64,000 nt of DNA from Nitrospirota bacterium. Lineage in GTDB: Bacteria > Nitrospirota > UBA9217. Positions 37,035-46,440 of this stretch are shown in pieces. The notes below the pieces were generated by a model. The model saw only the letters and a list, made by a program, of their open reading frames with translations, was not told where the DNA came from and made no database searches. Position 1 is the stretch's first letter; the number at the start of each line of letters is the position of its first letter. Location of the stretch: assembly GCA_029858565.1 (NCBI GenBank), contig JAOUEV010000010.1, positions 1 to 64,000 on the forward strand, read 5' to 3'. The position numbers and the translations under genes are program-made.

Positions 37035-37052
37035 GTTTTGCAATGGCCTTTT

Positions 37053-37294
37053 GCCACGGAAGAACCGGAAAAATCAAAAGCTGCTCTTTGACACTGGAGC
37101 TCTAAATCCAGAAGCTTTTCTTTGACACTGAAGACTCTGAGAACGGCTATGATAACGGCGAATAAAACTTTAGTCACGGAAGATTCTGAAAAACCGGAGC
37201 AGGAAGATTTATCCTGCCTCTTCATAGCCTCTATCCGCCTCTTCCGTGGCAAACGATCCGTCAGTGTCCTCAGTGTCTAAACCTTATTCCGGTT
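37053..37294. repeat. Long intergenic repeat, copy 1
   Basis: Near-identical to 38479-38689, with an extra internal duplication of the ctttgacactg segment. Confidence 0.9.
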
Positions 37295-38447
37295 TCCGTA
37301 GCTCACGCTTCGTTCCCAGATAGATATCATACTCCAGCAAACGACATTCGATGCCGCTGTTCCAGAACGGTATCTTCCGTTTGCTCTTCAACCCGATCTT
37401 CTTCGCCAGACCCGGATTGCCGGTGAACACATACCCCCGATAGCCCTGGCACTTCTGCTTCAGGAAATCGCCGATAGCTTCATAGACACCCTCCAGCTGC
37501 CGGATCTCTCCCATCCTCTCCCCGTATTCGGGATTCATCACCACCGCGCCGCCGCCGGCCGGGATGTCCGTTTCCGCAAAATCGCAGACCTTGAACTCGA
37601 TCAGGTGATCAACACCCGCGGTCAAGGCGTTCTTCTTCGCGGCGTCCACGGCCGCGGGGTCGATGTCCGTGGCGATGATCCTGGCGCCCAATTCCTTTTT
37701 CGCGGCCTTCCTGGCCTCGTCGCGCAGCAGCTTCCATTGCGTTTCATCATGGCCGAGCAGGTGCATGAATCCGAAGTTCGTTCGCAGCAGCCCCGGGGCC
37801 CGGTTCAGACCGATAAGCGCCGCCTCGATCGCGAGCGTTCCGCTCCCGGTCATGGGGTTCACAAAGCTCCCCTCGCCTGACCAGCCTGTCGCAAGCACCA
37901 CTCCGGCGGCCAGCGTTTCCTGCATGGGCGCGGCCATGGGGATCTTGCGATACCCGCGGCGGGACAGGGGCTCGCCCGAGGTGTCGAGGTAGAGCGAGGC
38001 CCTTCCCTCGGCCCAGTAGAGATGCACCACGGTACGATCGCGCTCCGGCCCTGAATCAGGCCTTCGTCCCTGGCGCTCCTTGATCCGGTCAACGATAGCG
38101 TCCTTGCACTTGAGGCTCGCGAAGCGCTGGTCCCGGATCGACTCCATCTGGACGCTCGAGGTCACGCAGAGATATCCGTCAGCCGGGATGAAGGTCTCCC
38201 AGGGGATCATTTTCACTCCCCGGTAGAGCTCGTCGGCCATCGCCGCCCTGAACTGCGCGAGTTCCACAAGCACGCGGTGTCCTGTGCGGATGCGAAGGTT
38301 CAGCACCATCGCGTCGCGCATATCTCCCTCGGTCTCGACCCCGGCGTTCCCTGCAGCAAGAACCGGAAATCCCAGGCCGGCCAGTTCCTGCGAAAGGATC
38401 GGCGGGATGCCCTTGGAGCAGGTTATGAGTATTCTGGATTTTTTCAT
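37284..38447 (-). CDS. THUMP-domain class I SAM-dependent RNA methyltransferase (RlmL-like)
   Basis: NLRIRTGHRVL, LDTSGEPLSRRGYR, APMQETLAA, NPMTGSGT, NPEYGER. Confidence 0.9.
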   Translation of the reverse strand: MKKSRILITCSKGIPPILSQELAGLGFPVLAAGNAGVETEGDMRDAMVLNLRIRTGHRVLVELAQFRAAMADELYRGVKMIPWETFIPADGYLCVTSSVQMESIRDQRFASLKCKDAIVDRIKERQGRRPDSGPERDRTVVHLYWAEGRASLYLDTSGEPLSRRGYRKIPMAAPMQETLAAGVVLATGWSGEGSFVNPMTGSGTLAIEAALIGLNRAPGLLRTNFGFMHLLGHDETQWKLLRDEARKAAKKELGARIIATDIDPAAVDAAKKNALTAGVDHLIEFKVCDFAETDIPAGGGAVVMNPEYGERMGEIRQLEGVYEAIGDFLKQKCQGYRGYVFTGNPGLAKKIGLKSKRKIPFWNSGIECRLLEYDIYLGTKRELRKPE

Positions 38448-38478
38448 AATAACGGCGGATCTCGTTTAAAACCTTTTA

Positions 38479-38689
38479 GCCACGGAAAAACCGGAAAAGT
38501 CAAAAGCTGTTCTTTGACACTGAAGACTCTGAGAACGGCTATGATAACGGCGGATAAAACTTTAGCCCCGGTAGGTTCTGAACGAAACCGGAACAGGAAG
38601 ATTTATCCTGCCTCTTCATAGCCTCTATCCGCCTCTTCCGTGGCAAAAGGTTCTTTTCAGTGTCCTCAGTGTCCAAACCTATTCCGGTT
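38479..38689. repeat. Long intergenic repeat, copy 2
   Basis: Direct repeat of 37053-37294. Confidence 0.9.
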
Positions 38690-39582: not shown

Positions 39583-40374
39583 CTACCGGGCCGAGTGGCA
39601 GTTCCCGCAGATATCCATGGATGACTGCATGGGAAATCGTATCATCTGGGGGGAATCGCCGCTGTGCGGATCATGGCAGCTCGCGCAGGTGAAACGCTTG
39701 CCTTTGCGCGCCGGGTCCTTGATCTTTCTCTTCTCGCCGTGGTCCTTGCCCGCGCCCAGGGGATGGCCCTTCCCGGCCGTGCCGCTGATCAGATGCGGCT
39801 TTGACAGGATCTGTGCGTGGCAGAGACAGCAGATGCGGACCGGCTCGGCAAGCAGCAGGGAGTCAGTGCGCGACGAGTGGGGCGTGTGGCACTGGAGGCA
39901 GAGGCCGGCGGATACCGGCCCGTGCATGACCTTCCTCGTGAACATGCCGCGGTCGTGGCAGCCGAAGCACAGCTCGGGCACCGTAGTGGTGAGCAGCCGT
40001 GCGTTCTTGGAGCCGTGGGGATTATGGCAGGAGCTGCATCCCATGTCCAGGGCCGGATGCTTGAACTTGTTCGTGAACATCTTCGAATCATGACAGGAGA
40101 AGCAGAGCTCGGGCTGGTCGGCGAGCAGGCCCCGCTTTACCGAGTTCGTGATACGGTGGGGAACATCGGCAGCGTCGATCCCCACATGGCAGCTGGGACA
40201 GCCCATGGACACGGCGGTGTGGACCTGCAGGCCCTCGATCATCTCGCCGTGGCACAGGAGACAGTCGATCTCATCCTTGGCTGAGGCAGGACCGGGACCG
40301 CCTGCTGATGCCGCCGCAAGCGCAAGGAACAGCGTAATGATGCGCAACACGTTCATAACGACCCTCGTGACCAC
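39583..40374 (-). CDS. Periplasmic multihaem c-type cytochrome (9 CxxCH)
   Basis: Signal peptide; CLLCH, CPSCH, CFSCH, CSSCH, CFGCH, CLQCH, CCLCH, CASCH, CGNCH. True start may be 40356. Confidence 0.92.
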   Translation of the reverse strand: MVTRVVMNVLRIITLFLALAAASAGGPGPASAKDEIDCLLCHGEMIEGLQVHTAVSMGCPSCHVGIDAADVPHRITNSVKRGLLADQPELCFSCHDSKMFTNKFKHPALDMGCSSCHNPHGSKNARLLTTTVPELCFGCHDRGMFTRKVMHGPVSAGLCLQCHTPHSSRTDSLLLAEPVRICCLCHAQILSKPHLISGTAGKGHPLGAGKDHGEKRKIKDPARKGKRFTCASCHDPHSGDSPQMIRFPMQSSMDICGNCHSAR

Positions 40375-40472: not shown

Positions 40473-40598
40473 GCAAAGGAACGAAAGCGGCGAGGTTGCA
40501 TTTAGTTGCAACTAAAGCGCGGCATTCAGCACTGGCCCATCACCGCCTGCCGGGCACGGAGGTCGTCACAATTCTTCCTGCGGCAGCAATGCCTGTCC

Positions 40599-40889
40599 TC
40601 AGCAGCATGCCGGCCCGGAATCGCCGCACCCGCAGGTCGGCTCGCCTCCGATGATCATGCTGTTGATCAAGGCGGCCGCGCATCCCACGCCGGCGTTCAC
40701 GGTGATGGCCTTGAACTCGCAGTTCAGGGCGCAGGCGCCGCACTCCATGCACTTGTCGCGGTCAGTGACCTTGGCGCGGCGGGCCTCCATTTCGAACACC
40801 CCGTGCGGGCAGACCTCCACGCACCGTCCGCAGCCTTCGCACCTGTTCTCATCATAGGCAAGCGAAACCGTATTGGCCAGATATTTCAT
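40599..40889 (-). CDS. hgcB: Mercury-methylation 2[4Fe-4S] ferredoxin HgcB
   Basis: MKYLANTVSL, CEGCGRCVEVCP, CMECGACALNC, GVGCA, C-terminal CC; overlaps the hgcA stop. Confidence 0.95.
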   Translation of the reverse strand: MKYLANTVSLAYDENRCEGCGRCVEVCPHGVFEMEARRAKVTDRDKCMECGACALNCEFKAITVNAGVGCAAALINSMIIGGEPTCGCGDSGPACC

Positions 40890-42043
40890 TGCATCCTCCA
40901 GGTCTGGAACTTGTGCGCGATCACCAGCAGGACCGACAGGCCCGATGCCGCGAAATAGGCAGGGACCGCCAGCTTCAGTTCCTTTTTCACGCCCGACATT
41001 CCGGTATAGGTTGTCGCGCCGGTGAACTGCAGCGCGAGATAGGACGTCAATGCCGGGAACAGCAAATAGGCCGCCAGGCGCATAAGACCTGCAGGGAAGA
41101 ACGAGGGAGCCGCTGCTTCAAGTGCGGCAAGTGCCGCGACGCCCATGACCAGCCCCTTGAGCGCGAATGACCGGAACGGAACAAAAGGAAGGAGCACCGG
41201 TGTCAGGAACGCTCCGGCGAACACCGCGACAAGCCCGAGCGCCAGGAACGGCAGGCCGCCGAAGAACGCGTCCCTGAACAGGATGCCGCTCGGCTGGAAT
41301 CCGAACAGCAGCAGCACGGCAAGTGCGAACCAGGGATATTTCTGCAGGGCAGGATTCAGCTCCATGGGCGTCAGGATCATCCGGTCGAGCAGGGAAAACC
41401 TGATCGTGCGCATCTCCGGCGTCTTTTTGTAGTTTCCCCGCACATAGGCCGGGATATCCCGCGCTTCGACCGGTCCGAAGGCAACGCGGAAGCCTGTCCG
41501 CTTTCTGATCTCAGCGGCATTCACTCCCACGGCGCCAAGCTGCGGAAGGATCAGTTTTCTGTGCGCCACCACCTCGGACAACCGGGCCGCGCTGATGCGG
41601 GTGGCCAGCTCTTCGGTCCCGAAGGTCCCCTTGCCTGCGGCGCACCACACGTTGATGCTCTTGGTATCGAGCGCCAGGACCCAGGCGTTCATACCGGCGA
41701 GAGATCTGCGCAGGATGTCGAAGGTCAGCTTGTAGTTGGCGGTCACGAACACGTCGGAATCCGGCGTTGGCTCGCCGACAGCATAGAGCCCCGGCTCGAC
41801 CGTGTACCGCATGCGGTAACCGCCGCTCCTGCTCCGGACCATACCCCAGGTATCCGAGGAGGTCCAGGTCGTCACGATCTTCGGCACCGGCCCTGCCGCC
41901 GTGGTCACGGAACCGATGACAAAGGACTGGACCTGAGACGTCGTCGAACAGCACGAAGCTGCAGACTCCTGGCCGCTCGTACCGCAGCATGAGCTCGAAC
42001 CGTTCGGCGTTCCTTCTGTTTTGATGAATTTTATTTCCTGCAT
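40886..42043 (-). CDS. hgcA: Mercury-methylation corrinoid protein HgcA
   Basis: Cap-helix motif NVWCAAGKGTF; VTANYKLTFD; LPQLGA; C-terminal TM domain ending FTGATTYTGMSGVKKE. Confidence 0.96.
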   Translation of the reverse strand: MQEIKFIKTEGTPNGSSSCCGTSGQESAASCCSTTSQVQSFVIGSVTTAAGPVPKIVTTWTSSDTWGMVRSRSGGYRMRYTVEPGLYAVGEPTPDSDVFVTANYKLTFDILRRSLAGMNAWVLALDTKSINVWCAAGKGTFGTEELATRISAARLSEVVAHRKLILPQLGAVGVNAAEIRKRTGFRVAFGPVEARDIPAYVRGNYKKTPEMRTIRFSLLDRMILTPMELNPALQKYPWFALAVLLLFGFQPSGILFRDAFFGGLPFLALGLVAVFAGAFLTPVLLPFVPFRSFALKGLVMGVAALAALEAAAPSFFPAGLMRLAAYLLFPALTSYLALQFTGATTYTGMSGVKKELKLAVPAYFAASGLSVLLVIAHKFQTWRMQ

Positions 42044-42072
42044 AGGATCACCTTTCCTTTCGCAACACGACC

Positions 42073-42759
42073 TCATGCCCGCGCAAGAATAACCTCGGAA
42101 GGGAACAGCATCTGTTGATGATATTCCCGCACCTCGACCGAAAAACCCTGCTGCTTCAGTTTCTCGGTCAAGCGCACGCCGCGGCATCCTCCCATGAGAC
42201 GCGGAGACAGCCGATACAGCAGTTCATAGAATCCGCCGGAGAGTGTTTCGCTTTTGGTCATATTGACCAGCGCGAGTTTCCCGCCCGGTTTCAGCACACG
42301 CTTGAACTCCCTTAGTGCACGGTCCAGGTCCTCGTCAGCGAGAAGATCGAACATATAGTTATTGATCAGGATATCGATCGTTCCCGTTCCCTGCGCAAGA
42401 TCCAGAGCCGTGCCGATGGCGAGCACATAGCTTGCCCCTGGCAATGATCGGAGACGCTGCCTTGATTGTTCCAGCATCCCCGATGAAAGATCGATGCCCA
42501 TGTTCCTGCCATCCCGGTTCCGCTGAACGATCTCCAGAAAAGCCAGCCCCGTCCCGACAGCTGCCTCGAGCACTGTCGATCCGTTCGCTATCCCGGCAAG
42601 TTCGATAGCCCGCATCCGCGCCCGGGACTCTGCCAGCCTGCCCCATATATCATAGAGCGGGGCGATCCTGTCATAGACCTTGCAGATCTCCTGCTGGGGA
42701 ACCATCGCATCCAATGTTGCGGAAGCATTTCCAGCACAGCATTGCGATAGGAGTCTCAT
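42073..42759 (-). CDS. Class I SAM-dependent methyltransferase in the hgc operon
   Basis: VLEAAVGTG, GIDLSSGML, REFKRVLKPGG; start position uncertain. Confidence 0.85.
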   Translation of the reverse strand: MRLLSQCCAGNASATLDAMVPQQEICKVYDRIAPLYDIWGRLAESRARMRAIELAGIANGSTVLEAAVGTGLAFLEIVQRNRDGRNMGIDLSSGMLEQSRQRLRSLPGASYVLAIGTALDLAQGTGTIDILINNYMFDLLADEDLDRALREFKRVLKPGGKLALVNMTKSETLSGGFYELLYRLSPRLMGGCRGVRLTEKLKQQGFSVEVREYHQQMLFPSEVILARA

Positions 42760-42799
42760 TGCATGTCATTCCTTTCAGGAACAAGGTAGTTTCCGCCGC

Positions 42800-43048
42800 T
42801 TACTTCTTGAACAGGTCCCCCATCACCGGCCCGAGCACGCCCTTCACCATCGTCTCCAGGCTCCCGGCCTTGAGCAGGGCGATGCAGCAGACCTCGCCGT
42901 CCTTTTCCCAGGTCGTGACCGCGAGCTTGTCGCCTGCCTTGATCCCGGCCTTGTCCCGCAGCTCCTTGGGCAGCACCATCTGCCCCCGCTCGTCAACGGT
43001 CACGATACCCTGGATCGCGCAGCAGCTTCCGTTCGTTTTCCTGGTCAT
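42800..43048 (-). CDS. hgcC: AbrB/MazE-fold, HgcAB-associated (HgcC-like) regulator
   Basis: CC..QGIVTVDERGQMVLPKELRDKAGIKAGDKL...VCCI, upstream of hgcA. Confidence 0.8.
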   Translation of the reverse strand: MTRKTNGSCCAIQGIVTVDERGQMVLPKELRDKAGIKAGDKLAVTTWEKDGEVCCIALLKAGSLETMVKGVLGPVMGDLFKK

Positions 43049-43063
43049 GGTCCCGCACCTCCA

Positions 43064-43107
43064 AATTCTGATTAATCTGATATATCAGAATTGGCTGATC
43101 ATGTCAA
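43064..43107 (-). promoter_or_regulatory. hgc operon promoter with overlapping inverted repeat (putative operator)
   Basis: TTGACA at 43107-43102; AATTCTGAT...ATCAGAATT and CTGATATATCAG palindromes over the -10/+1 region. Confidence 0.6.
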
Positions 43108-43210
43108 GAGGTTTCTGCCAGGACTGTTAATCCGTTGTTTTCCTGCGAGGATTCACATTTAGGAGGAAGATTGAGAGGAGAAATCCCTAAGAGGTTCCCA
43201 AGCCGACACA

Positions 43211-43618
43211 TTACTCTAGATGTGGCCAAGGATTGGCCACGCTTGAAATGAATATGTATCCATAGGAATATACCGCCATGGCAATGACAATAACAGTAGT
43301 GACAAGAAGAAAAGGTTTATGCGATTTTCCGCGAAAGTACGCTTCAGTACATATAGACTTTAACCATACTGCATATATAACAAGCATGACAAAAACAGCT
43401 GCACTTCCACCAAACAGTAAGAAGGAATCGGACTTTGATTGCCAGAACATGAAGCCACCGATTGCCGCGCCTAGCGATATGCCAGATGCAAGTGCGCCGT
43501 ATAGCCACATTATGTTAGCTGGACGCAAACCTACATACAGAAGGATCTTGGATGGTCGTTCTTTTGTTCCAGAGATTAAAACGTAGATGGCGGTAAATAG
43601 CGGTGCCCACAGACCCAA
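43211..43618 (-). CDS. Hypothetical low-GC membrane protein (5' end uncertain)
   Basis: Hydrophobic ORF in AT-rich DNA. Confidence 0.5.
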   Translation of the reverse strand: MGLWAPLFTAIYVLISGTKERPSKILLYVGLRPANIMWLYGALASGISLGAAIGGFMFWQSKSDSFLLFGGSAAVFVMLVIYAVWLKSICTEAYFRGKSHKPFLLVTTVIVIAMAVYSYGYIFISSVANPWPHLE

Positions 43619-43732
43619 TAGGTTAAAAGTCCGATAACTTACATGTTCAGTTAAGATGTGCGCTGCTCGGCCACCTCAATTTGCTGCAATCTGATCGAGT
43701 TGGTAGCTCCCCGGCAGCGTAGGAGCTACCCC

Positions 43733-44599
43733 CTACTCTTTATATATTAAACCAATCGTAACAAATATATGGTCCAATAAGAGGACCCAGGCATTATGAA
43801 GTTCAATTAGCATTGCTTGATGCCGTTCTTTCAATAAATTTGAAAGATCAACATTCAATCGGCTATACGCTTTTTCTTGAATTAACAATTGCTGCTCTAT
43901 GCCGGCATCTCCATCTGATAGCCGGGACGACATCTTTCCCCAATCCATGCTCTTTTCCTGATTATTTGCTCTGGCTTTATCAAATAGCTCACCCTTAAAT
44001 TTTAGAAGCAGATTCCTCATCTCATTTGCCGCAGATGTAATTTTCTGTGGATTATTTTTCGACTCATACACATATTGCTTTGTTTTAGTAAATAGGCCGA
44101 CGACATATTCAACATTCAACTTCTTCAACAGTGCCAACACATCTTCTTCTCGTTGGTGCGCTGTTTGAATGGCATCATATTTCTCAAGCGACTCTAACGC
44201 AGCGTCCTGTTGTCCGATCAATCCCCAATTAATGTTTTGAATAAGCTCGGAATAGACAGTTGCTGCACTCGCCGTCGAAGTATACGCCATTCGAAAAGGT
44301 AGAACCTTATATTTGGGCATCATTGGCAGTTGCTTTTGCAGTTCACGCGTGTCATACTCGATCTGCATTTTTAAATCCGGGTTGGTCCCTACGCTTGGCA
44401 CATTTTCAAGCGTTTCTAATTCCCACTCGGTAACTTCAAGATTATGTTCCACAGTTGGAACAATCTCGCCTGCACTCCTGATGTTATCCAGCCACTGCTT
44501 TAAGTAAGCCTTTTTCTCTTCCAGGTTTTTAATGTTATCATCCTTGTGTTTGACCGTGTCGATGGGGGTGGTACTATTCGATTTCTTTTTCGGCGGCAT
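43733..44599 (-). CDS. Hypothetical low-GC helical protein, possibly chimeric
   Basis: 288-aa ORF in AT-rich DNA with an SD; N-terminal 20 aa resemble a restriction-modification methyltransferase start. Confidence 0.7.
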   Translation of the reverse strand: MPPKKKSNSTTPIDTVKHKDDNIKNLEEKKAYLKQWLDNIRSAGEIVPTVEHNLEVTEWELETLENVPSVGTNPDLKMQIEYDTRELQKQLPMMPKYKVLPFRMAYTSTASAATVYSELIQNINWGLIGQQDAALESLEKYDAIQTAHQREEDVLALLKKLNVEYVVGLFTKTKQYVYESKNNPQKITSAANEMRNLLLKFKGELFDKARANNQEKSMDWGKMSSRLSDGDAGIEQQLLIQEKAYSRLNVDLSNLLKERHQAMLIELHNAWVLLLDHIFVTIGLIYKE

Positions 44600-44775
44600 T
44601 ATTTAGGAGCCTCCCTGACTGTTATTGCTTCGCTTGCTGCGATCAGCACTGACAAAGGTATATCAAAGTGATATACAGATGAAATACAGACGCACCAGAA
44701 CACTTCGAAAAATCAATTAGTTACGGTTTTTTATAAATATTTATTAGATAAATTACAAATTATCTTCAAATAAAA

Positions 44776-46440
44776 TCAAGTCAGCACCCATTTCGGTTTC
44801 TTGGCTGATCCCTTGTTTTTAATGGTTTTATCCTTCCTCGACATCTGCGCTAATAGATTGCTAATCTTGTTCTTCTTCTGCTGATCGCTCAGGGCATCGG
44901 ACAGTTTATTCAGGAGAAGACCGTCGATATCTTGCCGGCTTGCAGACGCATATTTTTTTAAATACGCGACGATCAACTTTTTATAGTGGTCATCATCGAA
45001 AGAACGATTACGGATGTATTCCGCGCGTTTTCCGGTTACATCTGCAATCGGCGCAGATACGTAGAGATTTGGAAAACGGCCTTCCGTCAACTTGGCCTTC
45101 TTTAGTTGTGATGCATCTTCCTTTGATATCGCTTCATGCTTTTGTATTCGGTCAAGCAAGATAACGGTTTTCAGGTCAAGATCTGTCTTGTTGATAAGGA
45201 GTCGGGTATATTTTTCGTCGATGACTTTTCCCGTAATCCGGACCTTCACTTTTTGCAAATCGGAGAGGTCGTAATCAGGCAGCGGGAAATAACGGTTCAT
45301 CTGAAGAGAAAACATCTTCTTGATACCGCCGCCCTGCGTATCGATAAGATTAAGGTTCACCATGGCCTGGGCAAGGAAGGCATTGCGGTAATATTCCTGC
45401 GGGGAGTCCTGCTCAATGACCTTCTCAACTGATTCCGGCAAGAAGCTGCCGAGATTGGCAAAGAGAATATCATCAGGATTTTCCACTACTGTGATTCGTC
45501 CACGAAGCTCATAATCCTGATGAGCAATGCAGTTGTTCAGCGCTTCCCGGATCACGTAGGGTTCATACTTCGTTACCTCCGTGGGAAAGAGCGTGTTGTC
45601 GAGAAGGTAGCGATACTTCAGATTGCGGATCTTTGCGTACACTGCGTCGATGTTCAGCAGGAATGGCGGGCCGAAGTGTTCATAGTCTTTTTCAATATTA
45701 TGGTCGTCTTTCAACACCCACGATATGCGGGCGATCGCAGAGCTGAGGAAATGCTCTGATTCGTCTTTCCCAAGAAGAATTATCGCGGCTCGGGTGATGC
45801 CCCCCTGAATCGTCAGCTTGGCCTTGTTTAAGAACGTGGCGTCATCCCAGGTATCGACTTCCGCGGCCTTACCCGCAAATTTCCCCTTATAATTCTCGCG
45901 CGCTCTGGCGATAGCCGCCGGGTCGAGGTCGTTGAGCGTTGCACCTTCGCAAATGCTGGCTGACCAATCTTCCTTTTCTTTTCTCAACCAAATCTTCCGC
46001 TCCTTCTCCGGATGGTCCTTCAGCTTCTTCTTGTACGTGCCGACTCGTATAAAACCTTCACCTTTGAATTTTACGGGGATATGATGCGCAGGATCGACTT
46101 TGAAAACAACGATCTTTGAACCATTGTAGTCGCACTCATGTATCGCGAAGTCATTACGAGGTTCCAGGAGCCTCGCGAGCCAGTTTTCGATCTCTTCATT
46201 GCCAACCTTTGCATCCCGAGGCCGAAACGAAGTGCCCGTGACCGCGTGGGTCCGGTCCTCAATTCCGAAAACAAGATATCCAGCTGGTTGTTCATGCAGA
46301 CCCGCGGAATTCGCCAGCGCGGAGATATACTCGCCGATGTCATCGGGAGTGTCGTTGTTAAACTTAAACTCGACCCACTCGGTCTCTTTCGGCAAGCTCC
46401 GCAAATCGTCAATAAGCGTTATGAGGTCATCATTGGTCAT
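44776..46440 (-). CDS. AlbA_2 (Schlafen-like) / HATPase-like / wHTH protein
   Basis: ETEWVEFK, YISALANS, GYLVFGIED, IREALNNCIAHQDY, YRNAFLA, GGGIKK. Confidence 0.85.
   Translation of the reverse strand: MTNDDLITLIDDLRSLPKETEWVEFKFNNDTPDDIGEYISALANSAGLHEQPAGYLVFGIEDRTHAVTGTSFRPRDAKVGNEEIENWLARLLEPRNDFAIHECDYNGSKIVVFKVDPAHHIPVKFKGEGFIRVGTYKKKLKDHPEKERKIWLRKEKEDWSASICEGATLNDLDPAAIARARENYKGKFAGKAAEVDTWDDATFLNKAKLTIQGGITRAAIILLGKDESEHFLSSAIARISWVLKDDHNIEKDYEHFGPPFLLNIDAVYAKIRNLKYRYLLDNTLFPTEVTKYEPYVIREALNNCIAHQDYELRGRITVVENPDDILFANLGSFLPESVEKVIEQDSPQEYYRNAFLAQAMVNLNLIDTQGGGIKKMFSLQMNRYFPLPDYDLSDLQKVKVRITGKVIDEKYTRLLINKTDLDLKTVILLDRIQKHEAISKEDASQLKKAKLTEGRFPNLYVSAPIADVTGKRAEYIRNRSFDDDHYKKLIVAYLKKYASASRQDIDGLLLNKLSDALSDQQKKNKISNLLAQMSRKDKTIKNKGSAKKPKWVLT

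Follow-up and report, generated by a model that had tools for sequence, protein, structure and literature searches.

To our knowledge, no marker for the microbial production of methylmercury other than hgcAB is known. In 112 genomes, hgcAB has been described as directly preceded by a small putative regulator, and the proximity of ars genes, arsM among them, to hgcAB is reported in the legend of Figure 6 (McDaniel et al., 2020; PMC7438021). An AbrB/PrlF/MazE-like gene upstream of hgcA was interpreted as toxin-antitoxin-related (Zhang et al., 2023; PMC10349881). In the available text of both papers the small gene is treated as toxin-antitoxin-like or as an unknown regulator, and a link between HgcC and arsM is not contained therein. 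The only tested regulator in the material available is of the ArsR type and controls hgcAB in a single strain of the Desulfovibrionaceae (Gionfriddo et al., bioRxiv 10.1101/2022.10.17.512643). Here we describe an hgc locus of a Nitrospirota bacterium (assembly GCA_029858565.1), which is located in the first 64,000 nucleotides (nt) of contig JAOUEV010000010.1, called the window in the following. It consists of an hgcC-hgcA-hgcB operon of the canonical kind and of one foreign gene inserted between hgcC and hgcA, an ars-type gene for a class I S-adenosylmethionine (SAM) methyltransferase; "MT" is used as a shorthand for the methyltransferase encoded at 42073-42759.

As in the known hgcC-hgcAB operons, hgcC, hgcA, and hgcB follow each other in this order with a common orientation, and all three score above the curated cut-offs. 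Unlike them, it carries MT, a protein of 228 amino acids (aa), between hgcC and hgcA, which is absent from the 45 other sampled loci. The locus also resembles the ArsR-controlled or ars-embedded hgcAB genes, as far as these are described in the sources available, in the co-location and probable co-regulation with arsenic-type genes, and a relative of this locus (L074) has the gene order arsC-MT-hgcA-hgcB-acr3-arsR. It differs from them in that the regulator has an AbrB fold instead of an ArsR/SmtB fold and that the arsenic-type gene encodes a methyltransferase other than ArsM. Thus, neither this type of operon nor a link to arsenic is new. In the literature searched, which was partly accessible as listings and had supplementary tables outside its scope, we found no paper on this MT family or on an AbrB-type arsM regulator, and no description of an MT insertion between hgcC and hgcA or of the HgcC regulator and its operator at arsM operons. 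Our reading of the whole, that an ars-type MT was inserted into an hgcCAB operon, that HgcC is a metal(loid)-responsive repressor, and that MT methylates a metalloid, is one to which we incline with some reserve, while the description of the locus as a canonical operon with one inserted gene is much firmer.

Organization of the locus

The four genes (40599-43048, minus strand) are co-oriented in the order hgcC-MT-hgcA-hgcB. The first gene, hgcC (42800-43048), encodes an AbrB/MazE-fold protein of 82 aa with two Cys-Cys pairs, which matches the model "HgcAB-associated protein HgcC" (NF040962) with 115.6 bits (cut-off 70). HgcA (40886-42043), a corrinoid protein of 385 aa with a Cys-rich N-terminal insert, reaches 390.8 bits with NF040863 (cut-off 275) over profile positions 1-324 of 325, and its translation contains SINVWCAAGKGTF with NVWCAAGK, in accordance with N(V/I)WCA(A/G)GK, which we take to be the definition of the cap-helix motif. 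HgcB (40599-40889), a 2[4Fe-4S] ferredoxin of 96 aa, scores 116.9 bits with NF040864 (cut-off 99) and contains the ferredoxin motif CxxCxxCxxxC twice, with a Cys pair at its C-terminus (...GPACC). An earlier inspection of the letters and open reading frames (ORFs), the sequence-only reading, had named these genes, including the AbrB-fold regulator, and had noted that they are closely spaced and co-oriented with Cys-Cys pairs in all four proteins; the profile scores and the translations bear this out. The same genome contains a second, weak match to the HgcA profile (63.5 bits, below the cut-off; G000:C7:14348-14722), which is probably a CdhD/AcsD-type corrinoid protein of the acetyl-CoA pathway.

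The intergenic gaps are 40 nt between hgcC and MT and 29 nt between MT and hgcA, and hgcA and hgcB overlap by 4 nt (ATGA). Both gaps contain the same 8-nt Shine-Dalgarno-like word, GAAAGGAA, which is the sole word common to both sides of MT; direct repeats flanking the gene were not found. Promoter- and terminator-like sites within the operon did not exceed the shuffled expectation, and Rfam and tRNA scans of the neighbourhood gave no matches. With this layout, a single promoter upstream of hgcC most likely serves all four genes.

The start of MT was assigned to 42759 because at least 90% of the 25 sequences in the family alignment share M1 and C7 (consensus N-terminus MKxSxSCCGxxC), and with it the SQCCA motif, for which the sequence-only reading had depended on this start, belongs to the protein. 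The database gene call for the same protein (P0001, 210 aa, 92% coverage) begins at M19. For hgcA the ATG at 42043 (MQEIKFIK) agrees with the N-termini of homologues (M..LKF). A longer hgcA ORF from 42187 (433 aa, with a third Cys-Cys pair in RSCCER) was rejected; it would overlap MT by 115 nt, and the homologues begin with M..LKF.

A public contig of 8358 nt from a separate assembly, possibly of the source sample, has no differences to the window over 40500-43200, and a mis-assembly is thus unsupported. In a run of another study (X2) a relative with about 94-97% identity was recovered over hgcB-hgcA and over hgcC. None of it aligned to MT and no contig of it joins across MT, from which we draw no conclusion.

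Insertion of the methyltransferase gene

Of 401 genomes sampled from the phylum, 95 have hgcA above the cut-off and 57 have hgcC, and in 46 genomes hgcC precedes a co-oriented hgcA. The distance between the two matches is 76-432 nt in 45 of these 46 genomes, and only in the genome under study it is 930 nt: hgcC is upstream of hgcA and co-oriented with it, but MT intervenes, and hgcC is thus not directly upstream. A genome of the same genus (G115, locus L084) has hgcC-hgcA-hgcB without MT. The 41 other fetched loci without MT contain no gene-sized ORF in the spacer, with the exception of an 88-aa ORF with a CxxC motif (..HATPLCRKCKDEL..) in a locus of the same family (L107, G107:C58), which is thioredoxin/glutaredoxin-like in look. 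The MT family is present in five of the 401 genomes, and in three of the 64 genomes of the taxonomic family. The G+C content at third codon positions (GC3) is 0.638 for MT versus 0.916 for hgcC, 0.775 for hgcA, and 0.835 for hgcB, and because of this deviation MT looks like a recent insertion.

The spacer of a further locus (L044) holds MT and two more genes, so the hgcC-hgcA spacer can take up several inserted genes. The additional genes lie between MT and hgcA (L044:1353-2703) and encode a Cys-rich protein of 209 aa (..NCNCQIICPAH..) and a membrane-like ORF, neither of which matches an NCBIfam model.

The departing GC3 and the fact that it is the sole such case among 46 loci would also be expected if MT were a neutral passenger, recently transferred into the spacer and functionally unrelated to HgcAB or to the signal of HgcC. 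Further points in this direction are the low-GC island with a Schlafen/AlbA_2 gene directly upstream of the operon (see below) and the tolerance of the spacer for insertions, as seen in L107 and L044. However, the reading frame of MT is intact, contains all residues that are invariant in the family, and has its own Shine-Dalgarno sequence. In addition, HgcC-like regulators precede members of the MT family in the absence of hgcAB in seven of 80 genome loci and one of 80 metagenome loci of the survey described below, and in genome G157. Control of MT by HgcC would therefore recur in other genomes and be no accident of this one, and we regard a neutral passenger as unlikely.

The methyltransferase family and its genomic company

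MT belongs to the class I SAM methyltransferases. It matches the Pfam domains Methyltransf_25 (PF13649, 60 bits, cut-off 27), Methyltransf_11 (PF08241, 54.4 bits, cut-off 21.2), and Ubie_methyltran above the gathering score, and it has a Rossmann-like fold; the AlphaFold2 model has a predicted template modelling score of 0.77, and the folds that match it best belong without exception to class I methyltransferases. No NCBIfam model is matched above its curated cut-off, neither the UbiE/MenG models (NF001244, 65.6 bits, cut-off 216; TIGR01934, 52.1 bits, cut-off 158) nor those of DVU_1556 (55.4 bits, cut-off 155), of the corrinoid protein-associated methyltransferase CpaM (NF043040, 49.9 bits, cut-off 180), and of ArsM (NF008823, 49.6 bits, cut-off 263). 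Solved structures, a fold search, and the ESM Atlas yielded only generic class I or UbiE-like labels. By these results MT is not a member of the ArsM family, despite its company of arsenic genes.

Nevertheless, the two proteins share several features, i.e., the class I SAM fold, N-terminal CC...CC motifs, often adjacent genes, and one aligned cysteine of the substrate site. A profile alignment with hhalign of MT and a neighbouring ArsM has a probability of 99% over MT residues 51-224, and the cysteine of the ArsM motif GC(V)AGA aligns to the invariant C192 of MT. The differences are the lack of the N-terminal domain of ArsM, the replacement of one of the two cysteines (see Discussion), and a fold that is nearest to a phospholipid N-methyltransferase.

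The family has 2759 matches at E <= 0.001 and is taxonomically broad, with members in taxa labelled Shewanella, Halomonas, Chlorobium, and Rhodanobacter. The neighbours were surveyed for 80 genome loci and 80 metagenome loci, many of the latter on short contigs; the closest relatives of MT (P0002-P0005, 71-78% identity) are outside this survey, and its metagenome loci reach 67% identity at best. A canonical ArsM is encoded on the same strand within 1.4 kb of MT in 17 of the 80 genome loci, and at 4.4 kb in one more; a weak ArsM match of 56 bits in L010 was excluded from this count. The ArsM neighbours in L008, L040, and L062 are above the cut-off of NF008823. An ArsR-type gene is near MT in 17 genome loci, an HgcC-like gene in seven genome loci and one metagenome locus, and at least one gene of these three types is beside MT in 30 of the 80 genome loci. 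In two loci from metagenome-assembled genomes (L042, L062) a cluster of HgcC-like gene, ArsM, and MT is followed by an EFR1-family flavodoxin/ferredoxin fusion (NF038196, above the cut-off); this electron-transfer partner beside SAM methyltransferases parallels HgcB beside HgcA.

Genes for HgcA or HgcB are near MT in two genome loci (L044, L074) and three metagenome loci (L144, L155, L157), i.e., in five of 160. Together with the window, the juxtaposition occurs in at least three layouts: hgcC-MT-hgcA (window, L044), arsC-MT-hgcA (L074), and hgcA-hgcB-MT (L144, L155, L157). The hgc-linked methyltransferases are scattered on the MT tree, with five changes for six rows.

The sequence-only reading had suggested an accessory methyltransferase, either as a methyl donor or for a metalloid-methylating step. 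As a dedicated accessory of HgcAB, MT would load the SAM methyl group onto the corrinoid of HgcA or reactivate oxidised cobalamin as in MetH, and more methylmercury would be formed. The position 29 nt upstream of hgcA in one apparent operon and the adjacency to hgcAB in five further loci with different layouts would agree with this role, and the CpaM model is a precedent for SAM methyltransferases beside corrinoid proteins. However, the score of MT with that model is far below the cut-off, and methyl donation to HgcA is thus unsupported. The 45 other hgcC-hgcA loci work without MT, and 155 of the 160 MT loci are without hgcAB nearby, with the family also occurring in lineages labelled Shewanella, Halomonas, and Rhodanobacter. 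Therefore, judged by the loci surveyed, MT is not a dedicated hgc accessory; homologues that are mostly not hgc-linked were what the sequence-only reading itself had named as speaking against its proposal. Within the same taxonomic family, one genome (G119, 95% complete) contains MT and no hgcA match. Another (G248, 86% complete) also lacks an hgcA match, and its MT homologue (L086, G248:C16) matches in two frames (residues 14-86 and 85-226), an apparent frameshift. We hold a dedicated accessory for quite improbable. The second option, a metalloid-methylating enzyme, fits the neighbours ArsM, ArsR, arsC, and acr3.

HgcC and its operator-like motif

In addition to the HgcC model, HgcC matches PF04014 (MazE_antitoxin/AbrB) with 37.5 bits and TIGR01439 over residues 15-52 with 46.1 bits (cut-off 28.3). 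The promoter and putative HgcC operator (43064-43107, minus strand) were read from the sequence; the scan with the promoter consensus did not list the site. It consists of a -35 element TTGACA (43107-43102), a spacer of 17 nt, and TATATC (43084-43079), and is overlapped by the inverted repeat AATTCTGATATATCAGATTAATCAGAATT at 43092-43064. This arrangement is conserved: upstream of hgcC in the fetched loci, CTTGACA precedes two or three half-sites (ATCTGAT/ATCAGA) at distances of about 10 nt. A pair of half-sites is present in 31 of 43 upstream regions of hgcC, whereas of the 721 control windows taken from these loci 13 contain one, and TCWGA has a density of 12.2 per kb upstream of hgcC versus 1.34 per kb elsewhere in the loci (about ninefold).

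The gene is also found apart from hgcA. Eleven hgcC-positive genomes of the phylum sample have no hgcA on the same contig, and in eight of these hgcC is upstream of a canonical-looking arsM, directly adjoining in seven cases and with one intervening ORF in L132. The remaining three have hgcC upstream of an MT-family gene (G157), beside a sigma-factor-like gene, and at a contig end, respectively. Three of the genomes with hgcC-arsM (G119, G182, G230) come from the same taxonomic family as the window and lack any match to hgcA. HgcC is therefore not hgc-specific. By eye, the motif can also be seen ahead of the HgcC-like genes of seven loci in which arsM and/or MT follow instead of hgcAB (L008, L031, L040, L042, L058, L062, L088), four of which match the strict half-site pair.

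The repeated half-sites over its own promoter liken HgcC to the AbrB/MazE/SpoVT swapped-hairpin proteins, as in the case of autoregulated antitoxins. It differs from them in that no toxin gene follows, that two conserved Cys-Cys pairs flank the domain, and that hgcAB or arsM are located downstream. From these sequence features, HgcC looks like an AbrB-fold repressor that may sense metal(loid)s with its Cys pairs and that would be common to hgcAB and arsenic-methylation operons.

Conservation of the cysteine pairs

The pairs of the four proteins are GSCCAI and EVCCIA in HgcC, the N-terminal SQCCAG in MT, SSCCGT and ASCCST in the N-extension of HgcA, and the terminal PACC in HgcB. Their conservation was followed in 43 hgcC-hgcA(-hgcB) loci, i.e., 40 from the phylum sample, L084, L044, and the window. 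For HgcA, L074 (hgcA and hgcB without hgcC) was added, resulting in 44 rows; the 43 rows for HgcB include L074 and exclude L117, which has no HgcB in its stretch. The second pair of HgcC (G-x-[IVL]-CC-[IVL]-[AT]-L) is present in all 43 loci and the first pair in 39, the remaining four retaining a single Cys. HgcB has a Cys-Cys pair within its final eight residues in 41 of 43 rows; one exception, L090, is truncated by the contig end. In the 25-sequence alignment of the MT family the N-terminal SxCC-type motif is kept, and C192 of the motif MGGCRGV is invariant. The N-terminus of HgcA has a Cys-Cys pair in only 13 of 44 rows and no such insert in 31, and in many relatives from the same family it begins with the cysteine-free MQMQTLKFVKK. 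In the aligned sequences, the Cys pairs are thus family hallmarks in HgcC, HgcB, and MT, and facultative in the N-extension of HgcA.

A crude set of 3710 ORF-derived proteins of the genome served for comparison. Cys-Cys pairs are present in 8.7% of them, and two or more in 0.75%. Among 618 co-oriented four-gene runs, 0.036 would be expected to have a pair in each gene. The richest four-gene window of the crude set has five pairs, and the hgcC-MT-hgcA-hgcB operon has six; the latter were scored by hand, because the crude caller had mis-called hgcB and hgcC as antisense ORFs. The clustering is not due to chance, and it results mostly from the family signatures that each gene brings.

This conservation (HgcC 43/43 and 39/43, HgcB 41/43, MT family at least 90%) would also be in accordance with HgcC as a small Cys-rich metallochaperone, not a regulator, that passes Hg or As via Cys pairs to MT, HgcA, and HgcB, in line with the hand-off chain suggested in the sequence-only reading. 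Metal(loid) binding by vicinal cysteines has parallels in ArsD, for As(III), and in MerA, for Hg(II). However, HgcC contains the DNA-binding AbrB/MazE swapped-hairpin domain, and in most loci the promoter of hgcC is overlapped by the conserved repeats. The pair of HgcA is missing in 31 of 44 rows and cannot therefore be an obligatory link in any hand-off chain, so that a fixed relay through HgcA is not general. A metallochaperone in place of a regulator appears very improbable to us.

Genomic surroundings

Directly upstream of hgcC, the region 43211-46440 is a low-GC island with a G+C content of 0.41-0.49 versus 0.57 for the genome. It contains ORFs of 135 aa (an apparent membrane protein) and 288 aa, both without a Pfam match, as well as a gene for a protein of 554 aa in which Schlafen/AlbA_2 and HATPase_c_4 domains were recognized, and is probably foreign DNA. 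Directly downstream of hgcB, a multihaem c-type cytochrome with four paired-CXXCH domains is encoded (39583-40374, minus strand), which has a strong promoter-like site of its own (TTGACA-17-TATAGT, 40472-40444, 11 of 12 positions matched). A gene for an RlmL/THUMP-type methyltransferase (37284-38447) has on either side a copy of an intergenic element (37049-37284 and 38475-38680; about 200-235 nt), the copies being 90-98% identical in segments. By its appearance this is an intergenic repeat or a miniature mobile element. The acr3 gene of this genome is located on another contig, and no other ars gene is present within the operon.

Discussion

The sequences show which genes are present, the insertion of MT, the genomic contexts of the families, the conserved cysteines, and the conserved operator-like motif; DNA binding and metal sensing by HgcC and the substrate of MT are deduced from them. 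The reading that we favour, with some reserve, can be formulated as a regulatory and an enzymatic part. Dimers or tetramers of HgcC would repress the hgcC promoter via the overlapping ATCWGA repeats. Binding of a thiophilic metal(loid), e.g., As(III) or Hg(II), to the Cys-Cys pairs of HgcC would release the repressor, and hgcC-MT-hgcA-hgcB would then be expressed as one unit. MT would methylate a thiol-bound metalloid, As(III)- or methylarsenite-like, with SAM as methyl donor, and the substrate might be held between the flexible N-terminal Cys pair and the invariant C192. The methyl group of SAM is electrophilic, which suits nucleophiles of the As(III) type and not Hg(II). MT would thus act alongside HgcAB, neither as a subunit of HgcAB nor as its methyl donor.

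Several observations weigh against this reading. For the regulatory part, the strict double half-site is not enriched in the genome, with two sites (C135:43075 and C54:7315) versus zero to three in shuffled sequences, so an HgcC regulon cannot be defined in this genome, and the co-transcription of the four genes is something that we infer from the sequence. For the enzymatic part, the nearest solved structure by both sequence profile and fold is a phospholipid (phosphatidylethanolamine) N-methyltransferase (8ys9; E 3.5e-13, TM-score 0.70-0.79), followed by assorted small-molecule methyltransferases, and ArsM is absent among the matches listed in the structure-profile and fold searches. The catalytic domain of ArsM contains two cysteines that, as we take from the CmArsM literature, bind the substrate. 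Only one of them has an aligned counterpart in MT (C192); the cysteine of SNCVINL corresponds in the alignment to the invariant Tyr135, so that MT does not retain the metal site of ArsM as such. In the model of MT, the predicted local distance difference test score is below 50 for the N-terminal Cys region and for residues 169-192. Concerning the genomic company, 50 of the 80 genome loci and 74 of the 80 metagenome loci, many of these on short contigs, have no ArsM, ArsR, or HgcC beside MT. A canonical ArsM, the usual partner, was not found in the genome under study (best match 63 bits, cut-off 263). Last, the MT tree is weakly resolved, and its well-supported branches are compatible with a single origin of the hgc link.

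A more far-reaching interpretation is that HgcC represents a new class of thiophilic metal(loid) sensors, namely, AbrB-fold repressors with two vicinal Cys pairs and an operator of ATCWGA repeats, which would switch on either arsM or hgcAB. It would place hgcAB in a metalloid-methylation regulon, the corrinoid and the SAM routes being fused under one sensor in the present locus, and it would point to a native role of HgcAB in metalloid handling instead of mercury methylation. We offer this interpretation as a tentative one, and consider it rather doubtful at present.

HgcC would be a second regulator family for hgcAB, structurally unrelated to the ArsR type, and it precedes hgcAB or arsM with the same operator-like motif. 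A Cys-rich methyltransferase from arsenic-gene neighbourhoods appears to have been brought beside hgcAB repeatedly, and this lends independent genomic support to the link between arsenic and mercury methylation. The parts are amenable to testing, i.e., a protein of 82 aa, an operator of about 45 bp, and an enzyme of 228 aa. If it is true that HgcC responds to As(III) or Hg(II), the expression of hgcAB in many environmental methylators would be predictable from the exposure to metal(loid)s, and not only from the presence of the genes.

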